From Octopus vulgaris (taxonomy: Eukaryota): 64,000 bases of DNA. Both the position numbers and the translations under genes were made by a program. The number at the start of each line of letters is the position of its first letter. Within the stretch, counting starts at the first letter, position 1. This document shows, in pieces, positions 5,530 to 50,628 of this stretch. The notes beneath the pieces are model-generated. The model saw only the letters and a program-made list of their open reading frames with translations, made no database searches and had not been told where the DNA came from. Location: the NCBI GenBank assembly GCA_951406725.2, contig OX597823.1:21514001-21578000 (forward strand), written 5' to 3'.

Positions 5530-5570
5530 GATACAGGACTCTTGACCTGTCCAACAAAGCGTGATGCCTA

Positions 5571-5687
5571 AACCAATCAGCTCAACCAACCAATCAGCTT
5601 AAGTAATTGAGTGATACTACACACTGATTGGTCAGAATACAGTTTGCAAAACCTAGCACTCTGGAGCCTACCCAGCTGTATTTATAG
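5571..5687 (+). promoter_or_regulatory. Putative Pol II promoter in pLTR: three CCAAT boxes plus TATA-like box
   Basis: aaccaatcag at 5571 and ~5588, reverse ctgattgg at 5624-5631, tatttatag at 5679-5687; upstream of ORF1. Confidence 0.6.
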
Positions 5688-5749
5688 CACAGAATCACTC
5701 ATCTTGCTACAGTCAAAAATTGTGAAGCATGACTGTCAACACTACTACA

Positions 5750-5794
5750 TGAACCCGAAGATTGCAGAATTCAATGCATGAAAGTACTAGTTCA
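5750..5794 (+). ncRNA. Minimal type I hammerhead ribozyme variant in upstream pLTR
   Basis: TGAAC-CCGAAGA-TTGCA(gaattcaa)TGCAT-GAAA-GTAC-TA-GTTCA: stem I TGAAC/GTTCA, stem II TGCA/TGCA, palindromic stem III AGTACT; core CCGAAGA versus canonical CUGAnGA. Confidence 0.75.
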
Positions 5795-5999
5795 ATCAGA
5801 ATGAATATTTAACATTCTACTATTTCATTTTATTTTATTCAATTATAATATATTATCTTATAATATATCATTATAAGATTGTAAATAAAACGTGAAAATC
5901 AGACAAGGTTGGAATTCTTTTTATTAATATATTCTTCTATACACAATCACACACACCCATATATATATATATCTATATTCCTATTGTGTATATGCCAAC

Positions 6000-7289
6000 A
6001 TGTCTGGAAAGCAACAAACAAAATTAACAGAATCCGAAAGAATTCTAATGGAAATTTCATCGAAATTATCAACACTCATCACGATGATTGACACACAATC
6101 TTCTATTTTAAAGGAAATAGAAAAACAGTCTACAGACGGAAAACTTGGAAATGAACACATAAACTCTGAAATTAAGAATTTAGCTGAAATGATACCAACA
6201 ATTATAAAATCTACAAGAGAATGCCTACCACAACCTCCTTGGATGTCAGAAATAAACGAAAGAAATCTGGAAAAAGAGGCACACCGAAAAAGAGAAGAGA
6301 TACAGAAGACATGGAAAAAACTCCTTAACATAAGAAAACAAAACTTCTGGAAGGCATATAAATGCGAAAAATATGCTGAAATACATTCGAAATGGATATC
6401 TTTAGCGGCACCCATACTTCCTCGGAAGTACCTAATTAAAGAAATTGCAGGAGAACCAGAGGAAGAAACTAAACTTCGATGGGACCTTAGTTTGATAAAA
6501 TTCAGGACCGACATCTCCATTACCCTGTCTAAACAATCCCGCTACAAAGCCAAATACGAAGCTATCGATGATCAAATCAGAGATGAAATATCCAAACTAA
6601 CGACCGGCAATATAGCAGAAAAAATGCGAGAACTATGGATCAGAGATATCTCAAAAGAAGAAAGCAGATCAAGAAAGTTTTGGCAGCGGAAACAATTATT
6701 TCTCGACAAATATGCTACAAATTACGGTAAAGACACCAGAACTCCGAGAAATAGCATTAAAAGTGGACAACCTCACCAACGCAACATACACCAGAACACG
6801 TGGCAACATGAACACCCGTTTCACCACGAATCGAAGACGAACTACGGTAAGAACTCTTCCCATTTTGTATGCAAACACCCTAATGCACACAACATGAACA
6901 AAAAGCACAAACAAAATAGATATTGTTTTGAACAGACCATTAGCAGTAGAAATAACAGATCATTTTCAAGACCTCAACAGAGATTACCCACAAGAAACTG
7001 GACAAAAAACCGATCTAGATCTAGAAGTAAACCCAGATCATTTCTCCAGGTGGTTAAAAACAATGCTAACAAGAAATTGAAAAGTAGCATACATAATACC
7101 AAAAACAAGACAGAAAACATAACGAAACCAAGTAAAGTACCACAACCAAAACGCAAAATTCATCAAGCAAACATCAACAGGAATATAAATCATAACCAGA
7201 AAAAAATCCATTTTTTTACGTCAGGACAACAAACACCGGAGAAAGAAAAAATCCAAGAGGAAACATACCCCAAACAACTGAACGTATAG
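6000..7289 (+). CDS. PLE ORF1, 429 aa; helical/coiled-coil-like N-terminal half and basic disordered C-terminal half
   Basis: ATG 22 nt after the pLTR; K/E/L-rich N-half, N/K/R/H/Q-rich tail including RSRSRSK; overlaps the ORF2 frame. Confidence 0.8.
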   Translation: MSGKQQTKLTESERILMEISSKLSTLITMIDTQSSILKEIEKQSTDGKLGNEHINSEIKNLAEMIPTIIKSTRECLPQPPWMSEINERNLEKEAHRKREEIQKTWKKLLNIRKQNFWKAYKCEKYAEIHSKWISLAAPILPRKYLIKEIAGEPEEETKLRWDLSLIKFRTDISITLSKQSRYKAKYEAIDDQIRDEISKLTTGNIAEKMRELWIRDISKEESRSRKFWQRKQLFLDKYATNYGKDTRTPRNSIKSGQPHQRNIHQNTWQHEHPFHHESKTNYGKNSSHFVCKHPNAHNMNKKHKQNRYCFEQTISSRNNRSFSRPQQRLPTRNWTKNRSRSRSKPRSFLQVVKNNANKKLKSSIHNTKNKTENITKPSKVPQPKRKIHQANINRNINHNQKKIHFFTSGQQTPEKEKIQEETYPKQLNV

Positions 7290-9523
7290 ATCCTAAAATA
7301 ATTAATTTATCAAAAAGAGATCTTGACAATGATGAAATCCAACTTCTGTCAAAAGGACTGAAATTCACACCTACACCAACAGCCAACCACCAAGAATTAA
7401 AGGAGGATATCCAAAAATTCTGTCGAAAATTACGACTTGTAGAATTCTTCGCTAACAAAAGTAATGAGATTGATGAATCCCTAGTAAGGAATAAATCAAA
7501 TTTCACCCCACCAAAAGGAAGAAATAACTACCTTGACCAATACATTGATATCCTGTCTAAATTTCCCCTTAGACGCAATACCAATGTTAGGCCAAACATT
7601 AGCAAATCAGAGATGTCTGCATGTAAACGTATACAAAACGATCAAACAATAATAATTAAACAAGCAGATAAAGGTGGTGCAATTGTTATTATGGATACCG
7701 AATACTATAAGGATTTGGTTGAAGACCAACTGAAGGATACAACCTTCTATTGTGAAATACCAGCAAATATAGGCCACCACATCATGAAAAAGATCAACAA
7801 CCTGATTTCAACACACCACAACTCACTTACGGATAATGAAAAAGACTACATCACCAATTTTGAACCAAAACCCAGCAACTTCTACGGCTTACCAAAAATA
7901 CACAAATCAAAAAACATTCAACAGGCAGTAAAAGAACAAGAAAGTGAGTACATCAAATTATTACATCCAAAAGACCTAAAACTTAGACCTATTATAGCTG
8001 GTCCAGCATGCCCTACACACCGTCTAAGCAATTTTATTGACATTGTTTTGAAACCACTATGTACTTACATACCAAGTTTCATCAGGGATGACATCGACTT
8101 CCTGTCCCATCTTCCCAAAACAACAGAAACAAATTCAGTTTTGCTAAGTTTTGATGTGGTAAGCCTCTACACCAATATTCCACACGATTTAGGAATAAAG
8201 GCGATTAAATACTGGTTAGAAAAACATAGAGAAGTGATTCCCAGCAGATTCACAGTGCCATTTATATTAGACACAGTCAAACTTATTCTAGAAAATAACA
8301 CATTCTTCTTCAATGGAAAGAATTACATCCAAATTAGAGGCACGGCGATGGGAACGAGGTTTGCTCCCGTTTACGCCAACTCTGTAATGGGATACTTAGA
8401 AGAACAACTCTACCAAGAGGTGGAGGTAAACTATGGCACTGGATTTAGAAAGTATATTGAAAAGGCATGGAAGAGATACCTAGACGACTGTTTCATAATC
8501 TGGACAGAATCTCTAAATACTCTGGAAGAGTTCAATATCCTCCTGAACAACCTACACCCATCTCTCAAATTTACAAAGGAGATGAGTAGTACCAAATTAC
8601 CATTCCTGGATATAATGGTAATTAAAAAAGACACCACTATCACCACAGATATATACTATAAACACACAGACACACATCAATACCTAAATTTTAAGTCGTG
8701 CCATCCACCACATACAAAACGTAACATCCCATACTGCCTAGCCAGAAGAATTTGTACTATTGTAGAAGATGCAAATATCAGGAACAAACGCCTAATAGAA
8801 CTAAGAGAATTTTTGCTCAAACAAAAATACCCATCTCTACTTATAGAAAATGGCATACAGCGGGCTATAAAAATACCTATACAACAACTTAGGACAACCC
8901 AAGGAAGAGGAAAACAAGAACAAGTCATACCATTCATAGTGACACACAACCCATGTCACCAGAATATCTTCAACATTGCCAAAGCAAACCTACCAATCAT
9001 TGCCCAAAGTAATGAATTAAAAGACATAATCAAGGATCGAGCTATGGTGCTTAGTAAAAGACAGCCTAAAAACTTGAAAACATTACTAACAAAGGCAAAA
9101 TTTGACCTCAGCAACAAAGACCAAACATTCACGGTATCTAAATGCAATGATAGCCGATGTGGCACATGCCAATTCATACATACCGGTCAATATATAAACA
9201 CAAAAACCGGGAAAATATTCACAAACGCGAATATGAACTGCAAAAGCAGAAATTTAATTTACTGCATCAAATGCCCAAATTGTGAAGAAATATATGTAGG
9301 TCAGACGGGAAACGCACTATTAGAACGCTCACGTGTACACCGGCAACAGATTAGAGACCCAGAGGTCCGTCAGATACCTTTGAGTAACCACCTAGCAACA
9401 TGTGGTCGGAAAATATATATAATATTTCCATTCTACAAATTACACAGCCCAAGTGAAATCGAGAGGAAAATCAGAGAAAAGAATTTTATTGATAAATTCG
9501 AACCCAAGCTAAATAAGCAATAA
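7196..9523 (+). CDS. PLE reverse transcriptase plus C-terminal GIY-YIG endonuclease; frame open from 7196, first Met at 7613
   Basis: Upstream of Met7613 the frame reads IINLSKRDLDNDEIQLLSKGLKFTPTP (conserved PLE N-terminal motif); then ADKGG, FYGLPKIHK, RPIIAG, SFDVVSLYT, GTAMG, RYLDD, SCHP, Cys linker CNDSRCGTC, LIYCIKCPNC..YVGQT, FEPKLN. Confidence 0.95.
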   Translation, partial: PEKNPFFYVRTTNTGERKNPRGNIPQTTERIDPKIINLSKRDLDNDEIQLLSKGLKFTPTPTANHQELKEDIQKFCRKLRLVEFFANKSNEIDESLVRNKSNFTPPKGRNNYLDQYIDILSKFPLRRNTNVRPNISKSEMSACKRIQNDQTIIIKQADKGGAIVIMDTEYYKDLVEDQLKDTTFYCEIPANIGHHIMKKINNLISTHHNSLTDNEKDYITNFEPKPSNFYGLPKIHKSKNIQQAVKEQESEYIKLLHPKDLKLRPIIAGPACPTHRLSNFIDIVLKPLCTYIPSFIRDDIDFLSHLPKTTETNSVLLSFDVVSLYTNIPHDLGIKAIKYWLEKHREVIPSRFTVPFILDTVKLILENNTFFFNGKNYIQIRGTAMGTRFAPVYANSVMGYLEEQLYQEVEVNYGTGFRKYIEKAWKRYLDDCFIIWTESLNTLEEFNILLNNLHPSLKFTKEMSSTKLPFLDIMVIKKDTTITTDIYYKHTDTHQYLNFKSCHPPHTKRNIPYCLARRICTIVEDANIRNKRLIELREFLLKQKYPSLLIENGIQRAIKIPIQQLRTTQGRGKQEQVIPFIVTHNPCHQNIFNIAKANLPIIAQSNELKDIIKDRAMVLSKRQPKNLKTLLTKAKFDLSNKDQTFTVSKCNDSRCGTCQFIHTGQYINTKTGKIFTNANMNCKSRNLIYCIKCPNCEEIYVGQTGNALLERSRVHRQQIRDPEVRQIPLSNHLATCGRKIYIIFPFYKLHSPSEIERKIREKNFIDKFEPKLNKQ

Positions 9524-9796
9524 TAATAATACTTAGAGGTATTACTTCCACTGCTACGACCATGACCACTAACAACAACAACAATACTAAAGGTGATCAA
9601 GACGAAGATAGCAGGAAAATTATCTTATTTAGGGTTAAAAGTTCTATTGCCACCACCATCACCACTAGCAACAATAATTAAGGTGCTGACAATGATGATG
9701 ATGACAATTGAAATATAAAAATATAAAAATCTCTGACAAAGGATATTTACAACATTTCTAAAAATAACCCAACAATTGCTGCTTCGGCCAGGGTCA

Positions 9797-10246
9797 AGAT
9801 ACAGGACTCTTGACCTGTCCAACAAAGCGTGATGCCTAAACCAATCAGCTCAACCAACCAATCAGCTTAAGTAATTGAGTGATACTACACACTGATTGGT
9901 CAGAATACAGTTTGCAAAACCTAGCACTCTGGAGCCTACCCAGCTGTATTTATAGCACAGAATCACTCATCTTGCTACAGTCAAAAATTGTGAAGCATGA
10001 CTGTCAACACTACTACATGAACCCGAAGATTGCAGAATTCAATGCATGAAAGTACTAGTTCAATCAGAATGAATATTTAACATTCTACTATTTCATTTTA
10101 TTTTATTCAATTATAATATATTATCTTATAATATATCATTATAAGATTGTAAATAAAACGTGAAAATCAGACAAGGTTGGAATTCTTTTTATTAATATAT
10201 TCTTCTATACACAATCACACACACCCATATATATATATATCTATAT
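9797..10246 (+). repeat. Downstream pseudo-LTR of the PLE
   Basis: Copy of 5529-5978; runs into (TA)n. Confidence 0.95.
10018..10062 (+). ncRNA. Second copy of the pLTR hammerhead motif
   Basis: Same sequence as 5750-5794. Confidence 0.75.
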
Positions 10247-10304
10247 ATATATATATATATATATATACATGAATATGTGTATACAAAGAGAAAAGGAGAG
10301 TAAA

Positions 10305-13005: not shown

Positions 13006-14646
13006 TTAATTTCTCTGTGTCAGTATGTTCGGATGGTTGAGTCTGGGTTTGTACTTTTCAATGAAGAATGTTTCCTTGTTCAGTCTCATTTGTGTTGATG
13101 ATCCGAAAGCACATTGGTAAAATGGGAAGATTAAAAATTGTGGCAGTAGTTGCTTTGCGCATTTCTCAATGTGCTCACTAAAAGGTATCATTCTATATTC
13201 TGGGAATGCAATCTGTTGTCGATGCAGTGTGCATCTGCGCCTGAGTGATAGTCCCGTGGAACCCACGTAGTCTTGGTGGCAGCCCGAGCATTTAATAACA
13301 TAAATTATGTTTTCAGAGGCACAAGTAAAGTTAGATTTGATCTTAAATTTCTGTCCCTCTTTAAAGAAGAATTCTGATCCTTCCAATAGGTTAGGACATG
13401 TTGCACAGTTCGATCTACCACATTTTTTTACTTTTGCATCCGTAATTTTAGAAGACAATTTTGCCTTTGTGAGAATCTTTTTAAGTGATTTAGGCTGTTT
13501 GTAGCTTTTAATGATTTGGTGTATGTTTAGAATTTCCTTTAATTTTGGGTTTTTATGAAGTATTGGTAAATTCTGGGTGATGATGGTGAAGGCTTCTTTG
13601 TTTCTGGGGTTGTATGTAGATATGTAAGGTAGTATTTTCGGGGAAGGTGTGTTGTTGTGTTGAACTTTTCTTAAAGTTTCTATGTTGATTTCTGTTGCAC
13701 GTCTGATCCCATCCTCTATGAGTTGAGCTGGGTAATGTCTGTCAATTAGGGTGTTTTTGAGTTCTTGCAGTCTAAAGTTCCTGGTATTTTGTTCTGACAC
13801 TATTGTGCATATCCTTCTTGCAAGGTTGAAGGGGATGTTTGTTTTAGTGTGTCTTGGGTGGCATGAATTAAAAAGAAGGTATTGTTTGGCGTCTGTGGCT
13901 TTGTAAAAAATGTCTGTTTCTATTTTAAGGTTAATTTTTTTAATTAGTATATCCAAGAAAGGGAGCTCCTTTTGGTTGTATTCCATTGTGAACTGTATAT
14001 TTGGGTTTATGCTGTTCAATAGGTTTTTAAATTTTAGGAGTTTATCTATGTTTTCATTCCAGAGAATGAAACAATCGTCTAGGAATCGTTTCCAATTCTC
14101 TTTTATGTATTGAGAGAGGGAGTTTCCAAAGATTGATAGAGATTCCTGGTAAATGATTATTTCCATGTATCCCATTGTTAAGTTCGCAATGACTGGTGCT
14201 GCCCTTGTACCCATAGCAATTCCGGATTTTTGACGGTAAAATGTATTGTCAAACATGAAGTGGTTATTGTGTAGGATGAATTCAATTGATTTAGTAATGA
14301 ATTCCTTACTGATCCTTTTTGGTATTTCTTCCGGAAATTGGTCTAACCAGAATTGTATTGCCTCCAGTCCATAATTATGAGGTATACTGGTATACAAGTT
14401 GACTACATCAAATGAAACCAGGATTGTTTCTTCCTTGGTTTCTTTTGGAAGGTGGTTTAACATATCTAAGTCATCTCTGATATGGCTATCGATATGTTTA
14501 AGGAAGGGTTTCAAGAGGATGTCCATAAGTAGACTTAGTCTGTGTGTTTCACAGGTTGGGCCAGCTACAATGGGTCGTAGTTTTAGGTCCCCCGGATTAG
14601 GTGTGTGTATGTATGTCTTTGGTGATTTTTTAATGGTTTCATTTAT
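13006..14646 (-). CDS. Truncated but uninterrupted PLE RT plus GIY-YIG ORF
   Basis: [63 protein letters not shown]; the N-terminal part in the ORF track is microsatellite. Confidence 0.93.
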
Positions 14647-43948: not shown

Positions 43949-44081
43949 TTGTATGTATGTATATATGTTTATATGTACACACATTTTATTTCCTTTCTTT
44001 ACACGAATTAAAACTCTTAGAAATGCTACAATATTGTAAACTAATTTGATAAAAATCTTTGGTTTTTCTCTTTTTATGTAG

Positions 44082-44158
44082 AATGGAGCGGAGAAAATGA
44101 CAGCGAATTCATTACGTCTGATGAGGAAGCGAGCGAAGAGAAAGAAAGTCTTCTTTGA
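44082..44158 (+). CDS. Putative terminal coding exon of host gene: (E)WSGENDSEFITSDEEASEEKESLL*
   Basis: Acceptor tttttctctttttatgtag; phase 1 matches the 22043 donor (G|AA = Glu); same acidic composition; TGA at 44156-44158; aataaa signals downstream. Confidence 0.7.
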
Positions 44159-45464
44159 AAAAGGAAGTAAAGACATTTGAAATACAGGATAAGACACACA
44201 TTCCATACACACACGCACACACACCCGTACACACGCACACATACACACGCGAACACCTATACACCTATACACACAGAGGACAAAATTTTAAAGTTTACAA
44301 AAACAGCAACCAAGTATAAATAATATACGTCGGACTGATAAAAAACGTTGAGTTTTTGCTTATATTTTCAAATTTTTTTTACGTGTTGGTGTTCGTGTGT
44401 GTGTGTGTTTGTGCGTGTGTGTGTGTGAGTGAGAGAGAGAGAGAGAGAAAGAATGTATGTGTATGTGTGAGTGTATGTGTGTGAATATGTATGAAGTTGT
44501 GAGTGTGCGTGAGCGTATGCACGTATTTGTGAAATTATGTGCGTAGGAGCGTGTGTGAATTTATGTGTTTGTGTATACCCTGCGGGTGAAGACAGTATGT
44601 CATAAGATGTGTAAAAAAAAAAACGAGAGCATGAATGAACTGAGATAACTATTGGAAATTTAGTGCAACAAAAACAATAAAACCAACAACAACCACATCA
44701 ACAGCAACCACAACAACAACAAACGAGATATTTATTTTATCTATCCTTTTTTTTCCCTTCAGTCCTGTAGCTGTATTTCACTATTATTATTTTCGCTTGC
44801 CTAATAAACTATTCAATGTATTGTATGCAGAAATCTGTTTCTTTGATTTGATTTGATTTTGTTGTTAATGTTGTTGTTTTATCGATTTATCGACTTTTCT
44901 TTTCTTCTACTATTCGGTGTTCCCCCACCTTTATTTTTTTTCTAATTCATATATATATTTTTTCATTAATTTACTTTCTCCTTCTTGGACATTCTTCACG
45001 ATTTACAAAAGGGATTCGATGTAATTGTTCAAGTTTTCAAGTTCCATTTGTTGAACACCATGAAATAGCTATAAAACGTTTCGAGCCTTTACTATAACTA
45101 TTCCGCTATTTGTAAGTTGTAAAGCGAGAGAAAGCTTCCATAAATAAATAGGAAATAACGAGAACGTACACACATTGGACATTGTATACAAAGCAAACTT
45201 GGGCATTAAATACATTTCCAATATGTTACCGGCTTCGTAGCATTTCCAGTCCGATTATGACCGCATAGCACTGTGCCAAACGATTGAGATATTTTCTTAT
45301 TTATCTTAGAACTGGTTCTTTACATACTGTTACGAATGTAAGAAACGAATTATTTTGTCAGCTGAATTATTGGTGAATTACGTATCGGTGGTAATTCGAT
45401 GGCATACATCATATTTATATTAAATTATACTATATCTGATGTATATAAAGAGAGAGAGAGAGAT

Positions 45465-45967
<503 letters not shown>

Positions 45968-45982
45968 AATATATATATATAT

Positions 45983-46075
<93 letters not shown>

Positions 46076-46083
46076 CAGACAAA

Positions 46084-46114
<31 letters not shown>

Positions 46115-46284
46115 GTTCTTTTAGTCTTTGATTCTTCTACTTGATTAAGTCATTTGACTGTGGCCATGCTGGAGCACCAATTTAGTAGAACAAATCGACC
46201 ACAGGACTTATTTTTGTAAGCCTAATACTTATTCTATTAGTCCCTTTTGCCGAACGTCTAAGATTCGGAGACGTATGTGTGTGC

Positions 46285-46333
<49 letters not shown>

Positions 46334-46493
46334 AAGGGCTTCTTTCAGTTTCTGTCTACCAAATCCATTCACAAGGCTTGGTCGGACCGAGGCTATAGTA
46401 GAAGACACTTGTATAAGGTGCCACGCAGCAGAACTGAACCCAGAACCATGTGTCTGGGAAGCAAGTTTCTTATCACACAGCCATGCCTGTGCC
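46115..46493 (-). mobile_element. SINE family 2
   Basis: Homology to 17542-17958. Confidence 0.87.
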
Positions 46494-46527
46494 TCACACA
46501 TACACACATATAAATAGTGCGAGACGA

Positions 46528-46582
<55 letters not shown>

Positions 46583-46727
46583 AATATAAGAGAGTTACCG
46601 TTAAGTGGTTAACTCTAGTGCTAAAAATAGCTCCTTATTCTGGTATAGCCACCGAAGTTGTTTCCACAAAGAAATAACATTACCTTCAACGTAAGGAAAG
46701 TGAAATACAACGAAAAGATAGATTAAT

Positions 46728-46799
46728 GCTGAACAATTGTTTCTTTATCAATATAATATGCAATTATACTCACATATTTATCTATAAATCATCAGCAGG
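46728..46799 (-). ncRNA. Type I hammerhead ribozyme, left arm
   Basis: Reverse complement of 47500-47571. Confidence 0.78.
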
Positions 46800-47499
46800 A
46801 TTTTTCTTCGATACAATTTATTAGACCCTCACGAGCGTCAAATACCCATGCGGTCCAATCGATTGCATACATAGTTGTGATTTAGGTTCTCCGCCAAAAG
46901 CATGGTAAGACTTAGTGGAAACGAATACTACATATAATATTTACTGCAGTATCATTAAATTTATAAATTCATAAATGAGGGTGAAAAATTAGATATTAAT
47001 TTAATAATACCATCAGTTTAACACCAAGTGGCTTAGCACATAAAAAACCCCCCAGGGAGACAATACAAATTTATACATAAATATAAGAGAGTTACCGTTA
47101 AGTGGTTAACTTTAGTGCTAAAAAGAGCTCCTTATTCTCGTATAGCCACCGAAGTTGTTTCCACAAAGAAATAACATTACCTTCAACAGTTAACCAATTA
47201 ACGGTAACTCTCTTATATTTATGTATAAATTTGTATTGTCTCCCTGGGGGGTTTTTTATGTGCTAAGCCACTTGGTGTTAAACTGATGGTATTATTAAAT
47301 TAATATCTAATTTTTCACCCTCATTTATGAATTTATAAATTTAATGATACTGCAGTAAATATTATATGCAGTATTCGTTTCCACTAAGTCTTACCATGCT
47401 TTTGGCGGGGAACCTAAATCACAACTATGTATGCAATCGATTGGACCGCATGGGTATTTGACGCTCGTGAGGGTCTAATAAATTGTATCGAAGAAAAAT

Positions 47500-47571
47500 C
47501 CTGCTGATGATTTATAGATAAATATGTGAGTATAATTGCATATTATATTGATAAAGAAACAATTGTTCAGC
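47500..47571 (+). ncRNA. Type I hammerhead ribozyme, right arm
   Basis: CTG-CTGATGA-TTTAT..ATAAA-GAAA-CAATTG-TT-CAG: canonical core, palindromic stem III. Confidence 0.78.
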
Positions 47572-47823
47572 ATTAATCTATCTTTTCGTTGTATTTCACT
47601 TTCCTTACGTTGAAGGTAATGTTATTTCTTTGTGGAAACAACTTCGGTGGCTATACCAGAATAAGGAGCTATTTTTAGCACTAGAGTTAACCACTTAACG
47701 GTAACTCTCTTATATTTATGTATAAATTTGTATTGTCTCCCTGGTTTTTTTATGTGCTAAGCCACTTGGTGTTAAACTGATGGTATTATTAAATTAATAT
47801 CTAATTTTCACCCTCATTTATGA

Positions 47824-47897
<74 letters not shown>

Positions 47898-48239
47898 TCG
47901 TCTCCCACTATTTCATTCATCACTGATCCGACTAACACGGTACGCGCAAATGTGGACATTATTACGCTTATCACGAATTGGTGATAACACGGGTCTTCTA
48001 GGACCACAAAAGCGATTGCAACTGACAGTCCACAATGCTCAAGATAACTTGAGAGTCTTGGAACTAAATCTATTTTCTTCGTGTTTTCTTTTTAATCCAT
48101 TTTACTCAATGAGTTTTTTTTAACCCTTGATAAACGAGGATAAATGTATTTTACTTGACAATTTGTGAACGGTAATGTAGGTTGTTTACAAGCCCCCACA
48201 GAAATTTCATTTCTAGTATTATTAGCACCATATTTAAAT

Positions 48240-48690
48240 CGACGAGCTGGCAGAATCGTTAGCACGTCGGGCAAAATGCTTAGCGGCGTTTCGTCCGTCT
48301 TTGCGTCCTGCGTTCAAATTCCGCCGTGGTTGACTTTGCCTTGCATCCATTCGTGGATTGATTTAAAATAAGAACCGGTTGATCACGTGTTTCGATGTAA
48401 TCGATTTATTCCTTCCCCTGAAATTGCTGTCCTCGTGCCAAAATTTGAAATCGCTATTAACACCACATTTAAGGCGGCGAGTTGGCAGAATCGTTTGCAA
48501 GCTGGACGAAATACTTAGCGGTATTTTGCCCGTCGCTACGTTCTGAGTTCAAACTCTGCCGCGGTCGACTTTGTCTTTCATCCTTTCAGGGTCGATAAAA
48601 TAAGTACCAGTTGAACACTGGGCTCGATGTGATCGACTCATCCCCGCTTCTCCCAAGCTACCCTTCTGGGGAAAAAAATTGAAATAATTA
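48240..48690 (+). mobile_element. Two adjacent SINE family 3 copies (~48240-48455 and ~48471-48690)
   Basis: Each has head, core and an A-like tail. Confidence 0.85.
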
Positions 48691-49150
48691 TTAATACCAT
48701 ATTTATCTCTCTACTAATTAAACATTTGACTGTAATTCTTTTTGCAATCTGTTTTGGAATCTCAACGCTCACATAAGAGTATAAACAATAGCATGTTAAT
48801 ATTGGGCTGAAAACCCTCTTTTGGACAAAAAAGGCTGCTGGTAGCGATTGAACCTACATCTCCTGTAGATATGGCAGGCTTTCTATCATTGTATCAAAGC
48901 AACCCTTCGAATTTATCTATCCATTTTAGAAACTTTATTCAAGGGATTGTGACCAGCGGTGAATAACATCCGATAATCTGATAGATACAGTGATGTGCGT
49001 GGGTGAGGGTGAGCAAAATTTGTGAATTACCGAATTCTTAAACCTGCTGGTCTATTGCATTTTGCTGATGAGTATTTATGGAACTAGTTTATACTCTGGC
49101 TCATTAGATAGCTCTGAGTGCTTATTACCTGTCCTTATACACCACATATT

Positions 49151-49230
<80 letters not shown>

Positions 49231-49242
49231 GCATACATACAT

Positions 49243-50628
<1,386 letters not shown>

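Follow-up and report, generated by a model that had tools for sequence, protein, structure and literature searches.

The element described here lies at 46577–47825 of the window, by which we mean the whole 64,000-nt stretch of Octopus vulgaris DNA that was analysed. It consists of two arms of a non-coding repeat arranged head to head between a left (46530–46576) and a right (47829–47895) (TA)n target tract. An earlier note, written from the letters alone, had described a 1.25-kb near-palindrome of a 497-bp unit with (TA)n flanks and no open reading frame (ORF), and these points are confirmed: 46575–47111 pairs with 47188–47724 over 537 nt with 3 mismatches, the direct-repeat spacing is 497 in each arm, and the longest stop-free frame is 54 amino acids. 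Arm 1 (46577–47187, minus strand) measures 611 nt, or approximately 1.23 units, and has its 3′ end at a short fixed site adjoining the (TA)n tract. Arm 2 (47188–47825, plus strand), the long-end arm, measures 638 nt, or approximately 1.28 units, and contains one full 497-bp unit (47188–47684, plus strand). As the note had also seen, both arms slightly exceed one unit (1.2–1.3 units each) and differ in their 5′ starts, at approximately unit positions 422 and 1. The short-end arm outreaches the long-end arm by 76 nt, and the unpaired 76-nt centre (47112–47187, minus strand) belongs to the second round of the unit in arm 1 and has 3 derived differences. Three features had been overlooked, one of them a C-C mismatch in stem I of both ribozymes, described below. 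The arms stop at different fixed 3′ ends, and a one-sided “tail” of approximately 103 nt (47723–47825, plus strand) extends from the short to the long fixed 3′ end, both ends being followed directly by a TATAAA word in the unit. The unique right flank (47896–47913, plus strand) is furthermore matched at 17 of 18 positions by an inverted copy at 46512–46529 (minus strand), of which it is the presumed source.

Each arm carries one type I hammerhead, a call that rests on a pattern scan and on covariation in the family, and the two face outward. That of arm 2 (47497–47574, plus strand) has its core at 47504–47510 and 47556–47559 (CUGAUGA at 47504, GAAA at 47556), its palindromic stem III at 47559–47566 and a predicted cut at a GUU site (47567/47568), and that of arm 1 (46725–46802, minus strand), with CUGAUGA at 46795, is predicted to be cut between 46732 and 46731. 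Both have a long stem II, a stem III of 2 bp within an 8-nt palindrome (palindromic loop), the GUU site, and a C-C mismatch in stem I (47500/47571 in arm 2) at a position where 76 of 90 family copies have G-C. Among these 90 copies two-sided, compensatory changes occur at 3 of the 7 stem I pairs; 74 have kept GAAA and stem III intact together with a CUGAUGA or CCGAUGA core, a count whose 3′ half is biased by the exact search motif used to collect the copies; and stem II is closed by a C-A mismatch in 37. Compared with Rfam, 44000–50500 had no match to a hammerhead family at E ≤ 1, and the hits that did appear were noise from TA repeats. Folded alone, the 96-nt motif forms stems I and II and does not form the core (z = −1.6). 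The cut-to-cut monomer, folded as a circle, scores z = −4.8 relative to 60 shuffles. A CCAAT-like (47440) and a TATA-like (47476) motif lie upstream of the ribozyme (47440–47483, plus strand) and may have a promoter role. On visual inspection, similar boxes also precede the hammerhead of a coding family. The locus has one ribozyme per strand and not the two by which a preprint defines an “active” copy, and two whole ribozymes on one strand were found at 4 of 129 family loci. With one stem-I-mismatched predicted ribozyme per strand, the copy at 46577–47825 is expected to be unable to excise a monomer by itself, and it is likely a dead end.

A dispersed family and the ends of its arms

Exact motifs of 21–22 nt taken from the ribozyme and from the end of the unit have 87 and 114 matches, respectively, in the 2.8-Gb genome and none in reversed controls. 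All 87 ribozyme-motif matches, the first 100 of the 114 end-motif matches and most of 40 scored BLAST candidates were assembled into 129 distinct loci, in which long, well-kept copies are over-represented by the choice of best BLAST scores and exact motifs. These comprise 67 head-to-head, 58 single-arm and 4 complex loci. The consensus unit has 492 bp and 32.5% GC with no ORF, and 36 of 176 arms are longer than one unit, reaching 911 nt, with unit following unit directly and no ORF between them. The tandems are partial only, at most 1.85 units; the longest arm has 911 nt, and among the 87 exact matches arrays never contain more than two ribozymes, although larger arrays could be absent from the assembly. 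The reading of a non-coding, hammerhead-bearing dispersed family of PLE (Penelope-like element) type, or retrozyme-like, which the earlier note had put forward, is supported. Its description as young was overstated: among the first 87 loci long arms differ from the consensus by a median of 3.7% and from their nearest neighbour by a median of 2.6%, and the closest pair differs by 1.1%, against 0.2% between copies of a coding family, so that the family is moderately aged and not brand new. No direct target-site duplication above 10 bp was found in 85 loci, where (TA)n would hide short ones. Contigs of three sequencing runs, which we guess to be of RNA, contain pieces of the family and leave the unique right flank uncovered, a result that bears on neither expression nor circles nor dsRNA. 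Runs labelled as organisms B–D contain 0.34–0.43 of the sequence words. No paper on this family or on the number of start sites per arm was found in the mostly open-access literature searched, and the family may be catalogued already, in Repbase/Dfam or elsewhere.

A survey of permuted endpoints in other copies, which had been proposed as a check, gives scattered 5′ ends and two fixed 3′ ends. On the sense strand the 3′ ends fall at two fixed sites separated by approximately 103 nt, with a TATAAA word directly after each site; 175 of 184 ends run into (TA)4 or longer. Both ends could be classified at 54 of the 67 inverted loci, the other 13 being set aside for one unclassifiable end each, and of these 52 combine a short with a long end, 2 are short+short and none is long+long. 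The pairing held at 36 of 38 loci in the first sample (p = 3e-9) and at 16 of 16 in a second, independently chosen one. Both ends are also used by single arms (21 short, 34 long, 3 unclear). By analogy with Penelope insertions, we interpret the 52 of 54 as the “tail”, i.e., as two RT start sites, and in the accessible part of PMC11167929 a PLE RT starts in vitro at two internal sites whose distance equals the tail, while the enzyme, a predicted dimer, nicks and extends both target strands. At many long 3′ ends the unit is separated from (TA)n by GT or GTGT (for example at 47826–47828), which resembles the last bases of the short site and possibly reflects a brief start at that site, or slippage. 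A count of junction microhomology was not used, since exact extension halts at nearby variants and scores the locus at 46577–47825 as −10. The 5′ ends are spread over the whole unit, only 1 of 192 lies within 5 nt of the ribozyme cut, and a fixed 5′ end at a transcription start was rejected, as no sharp peak is present.

Repeated copying of one unit

Alleles were compared at 30 subfamily sites. Of 232 comparisons between the two arms of a locus, 4 are discordant, where 89 would be expected for unrelated arms; of 169 comparisons between the tandem rounds within one arm, 9 are discordant (66 expected). A minor allele is shared by both rounds in 50 cases and confined to one round in 5, and six locus-private alleles are present in both rounds. 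Because subfamily alleles are common to the tandem rounds, it follows that one unit was copied repeatedly. The earlier note had attributed the greater-than-unit length to reverse transcription of a circular RNA of approximately 497 nt; the repeated copying stands, whereas the circle itself fits without being proven, as an end-to-end template jump or a homogenised source array would give the same alleles. If tandem units were inherited linearly, their registers could drift apart, which suggests that a monomer step must recur often. A circular template has been proposed for PLEs, according to the available text of PMC4209133, and circular RNA has been shown for coral, mussel and axolotl retrozymes, according to that of PMC7229834. 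The lack of a 5′ pile-up at the cut, the lack of indels across it (0 of 45) and the fold of the monomer favour the circle here. Divergence is slightly higher in off-register copies (152/4764) than in same-register copies (121/4784), an excess not predicted by a pure single-circle origin. A triplet test on register gave 15/28 (p = 0.02), and 12/25 (p = 0.09) without the locus at 46577–47825. The data do not support strong arm-to-arm conversion across the family, as divergence is 2.6% in same-register and 3.1% in off-register comparisons (p = 0.2).

The alternative that survives best keeps the same two-site priming and dispenses with a covalent circle: RT would jump from the 5′ to the 3′ end of a cut monomer, or read a linear multimer of a very young or homogenised tandem source. 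Allele sharing shows re-use of a unit and not a covalent bond, the excess divergence of off-register copies points the same way, and in the part of PMC11167929 available the main in vitro substrate of Poseidon_Ac (PAc) is unprocessed RNA. Jumps might, however, leave traces as 5′ ends or indels at the cut, where 1 of 192 and 0 of 45 were counted, and neither longer arms nor larger arrays than the limits given above were seen, subject to the same caveat on the assembly. We consider a linear template unlikely, while still giving it some weight.

On balance we think it probable that 46577–47825 is one head-to-head insertion into (TA)n of a non-coding hammerhead repeat, mobilised in trans by a Penelope-like RT-endonuclease, with the two arms primed separately. 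The explanation rests on the dispersed family, the two fixed 3′ ends, the random 5′ ends, the TA targets, the covarying hammerhead, and the subfamily alleles common to arms and rounds. Read-through RNA from the few tandem loci with two ribozymes would be cut to a monomer of approximately 492–497 nt and probably ligated into a circle. A PLE protein, probably a dimer, would then cut both (TA)n strands, and each target 3′ end would pair with the UAUA word at one of the two start sites approximately 103 nt apart. The primed ends would be extended round the template, often beyond one full unit, and the two cDNAs would stop at random and be joined head to head. The last and weakest step is that the stem at 46577–47825 was probably evened out later, and 18 bp of the right flank copied leftward, by a template switch or by conversion between the arms. 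Several observations weigh against this explanation: a PLE ORF adjoins the element in 0 of 129 loci; the tail is approximately 103 nt, compared with 30–40 nt in papers; off-register copies are the more diverged, if slightly, and the loci with two whole ribozymes on one strand are only four; the cleavage site is GUU and stem II is often closed by C-A; and PAc insertion in vitro did not need hammerhead cleavage, as stated in the available part of PMC11167929.

More tentatively, and with somewhat less than even confidence, we suggest that the Penelope cycle has left a genetic record in the alleles of the family, a cycle in which one ribozyme-made RNA circle, two RT active sites and priming from both (TA)n strands at two fixed UAUA sites would explain tail, partial tandem and inversion in one event. 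If true, it should hold for coding PLEs with their 4.27-kb units as well, and the 497-nt unit would be the minimal substrate to prove it.

Coding Penelope-like elements and retrozymes

The window itself contains a near-intact and very young coding PLE at approximately 5530–10250 (plus strand), with RT and GIY-YIG at 7295–9520 in a 4271-bp unit, which was assigned to the Neptune-type clade by the CxxxxCxxC motif before GIY-YIG, following PMC8557442 as far as that text was available. It has a minimal hammerhead with a GTAC palindrome, and its end motif has 975 exact matches in the genome. Among the first 30 of these, all five head-to-head pairs are short+long, with a tail of approximately 30 nt. 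Its 4271-bp units form arrays of up to approximately 2.5 units, which differ by 0.06% within and 0.22% between loci, and array-private alleles are found in all copies 13 times and in some copies 10 times, in a sample of nine arrays on one contig and the window copy where unequal crossing-over could also yield such arrays. Since this coding control behaves alike, the features at 46577–47825 are general PLE behaviour in this genome. Length beyond one unit is not special to retrozymes, as the 4.27-kb coding family has it too. Another coding PLE (RT-GIY-YIG), truncated at its 5′ end, lies at 13036–14646 (minus strand) and is 47–58% identical to two sampled families. A second abundant coding family (L133–L139) has many open 781-aa frames and repeated CCAAT-like boxes in its 3′ region, and the pattern scan found no type I hammerhead in it.

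It could be argued that the loci are no separately replicating family and are 5′-truncated pLTRs of a coding PLE, a possibility that the earlier note had named as fatal to its own reading. The layout is indeed the standard PLE footprint, and coding PLEs are abundant in the genome with their diversity sampled in part. The unit has no ORF, however; it follows itself directly, as described above for the 36 arms of up to 911 nt; and flanking coding sequence was found at none of the 129 loci. A coding partner was looked for: the unit shows no similarity to 48 GIY-YIG loci, no local alignment above shuffles to 11 coding 3′ regions, and no tblastn match to 4 local PLE proteins, in a thin search where 150 of 6136 GIY-YIG candidates were scored. 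That the loci are stumps of this kind seems to us quite improbable.

The preferred reading, separately primed insertion of a non-coding repeat, can be compared with published systems. EN+ PLE insertions, as described in the available parts of PMC8557442 and PMC3846280, share the partial tandem (36 of 176 arms here), the adjacent inverted 5′-truncated copy (67 of 129 loci), the tail on one end only (52 of 54), the AT-rich or microsatellite target (175 of 184 3′ ends in (TA)n), the hammerhead in the repeated part and the variable 5′ truncation. The octopus unit differs in that it has no RT-EN ORF, is wholly pLTR-like, has the longer tail, and has no homologous coding element that we found. Every layout feature tested is therefore that of an EN+ PLE insertion, and the element works like one; the RT + GIY-YIG ORF of an autonomous PLE is lacking, and it is not an autonomous PLE. 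Non-LTR retrozymes, proposed to be non-autonomous derivatives of PLE pLTRs in the text available of PMC7229834 and 10.64898/2026.07.22.740005, are alike in the non-coding, low-GC unit, the predicted strongly self-paired monomer, and the type I hammerhead with a 2-bp stem III and tetraloop. The unit of 492–497 bp is larger than the 150–450 bp given in PMC7229834 and falls inside the 51–972 bp of 10.64898/2026.07.22.740005, to judge from the same available text. The octopus family differs in having only partial tandems (up to 1.85 units) and in that half of its loci are inverted. The element at 46577–47825 is retrozyme-like, with cleavage and circularity as predictions.

In PAc, too, RT starts at two internal sites that lie downstream of the hammerhead and define the tail, and the target is AT-rich, with both strands cut and extended. 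It differs in that its sites lie within the ORF, close together, and are described as non-homologous to the target, whereas both octopus sites fall at a TATA word matching (TA)n; one site per arm is not among the features reported in the available part of PMC11167929. The circular-template proposal of PMC4209133 likewise invokes greater-than-unit reverse transcription of a ribozyme-made circle and, in its available text, comes without an allele-level test. Chlamys MRC1, described in the available part of PMC8557442, is a non-autonomous, pLTR-forming PLE as well, and differs in being algal and reported without canonical hammerheads. The layout, the idea of a circle, and animal retrozymes as non-autonomous PLE derivatives are thus already in print, and what is added are the counts of 3′ ends, 5′ offsets and allele sharing, which we did not find in the literature searched. 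The element is ordinary in kind, and its value is that of a natural experiment on PLE tandem and inverted insertion and on the role of the hammerhead, which papers call unresolved. It ties retrozymes to PLE enzymes by integration footprint and not by sequence, and a 497-nt RNA with two mapped start sites could easily serve as substrate in the in vitro PLE assay that already exists.

The fold-back question and neighbouring elements

The earlier note had proposed that the inversion arose by fold-back synthesis, in which RT rounds the circle and the cDNA or antisense RNA then folds back and copies itself into the second arm. The near-perfect palindrome at 46577–47825 and the inverted 18-bp flank copy, which looks like a template switch, would suit this, and self-priming involving junction palindromes has been proposed for rotifer Penelopes (PMC3846280, in the part available), a case that the octopus hammerhead family does not look like. 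A copied arm should start near the 5′ end of the other arm without outrunning it. The median 5′ offset between arms is, however, 204 nt, and the two 5′ ends come within 30 nt of each other at only 3 of 52 loci. Neither arm is consistently the longer: at 29 of the 52 loci it is the short-end arm that extends further, here by 76 nt. A copied arm would also not end at a second fixed site that single arms use independently. The 5′ ends of the arms are independent, and a strand copied by fold-back could not extend beyond its own template or terminate at another site used throughout the family. Separate priming on the two sides of the cut, followed by joining of the truncated ends, would fit the data. 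Fold-back is already largely refuted by the end counts, and we regard it as very improbable. One start site per arm, together with allele sharing between rounds, favours dual priming on a re-used unit over self-priming.

The flank copy is peculiar to this locus. Its 18-mer occurs in the genome only at 46512 and 47896, so that it was rejected as the end of another repeat, and an inverted flank other than TA was found at 1 of 85 family loci. The stem shows 3 differences in 516 columns, compared with 3 derived differences in the 76-nt loop (p = 0.03, in a test picked with the data already in view). The low stem divergence and the flank copy would both result if, once the element had inserted, a template switch or conversion took place across the hairpin. 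An assembly artefact from a chimeric fold-back read, to which the most similar arms among the long overlaps (3/516), the unique flank copy and the lack of any read or contig seen to span 46577–47825 might point, is extremely improbable given that the arms are asymmetric in the short+long manner of the family and carry 3 differences, that the head-to-head layout recurs at 67 of 129 loci, and that the flank copy has one mismatch.

Further elements of this kind were seen nearby and elsewhere. A sequence-distinct non-coding head-to-head element in (TA)n lies at 49242–50445, and its unit measures approximately 462 bp. One arm, of 855 nt, carries two hammerhead-like cores in tandem (49964 and 49511, minus strand), the inverted arm has 300 nt, and a short additional piece is present; both cores appear to have G at the cleavage position, and a relative adjoins a coding PLE in L134. 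Beside another coding PLE end, L111:121–560 is a perfect head-to-head hammerhead mini-element of other sequence. A third family is represented at 45586–45925 by one arm of 340 bp flanked by TA tracts. This arm contains a degenerate type I hammerhead (45913, minus strand) and, at its TA end, a 12-nt word identical to the short end of the element at 46577–47825.
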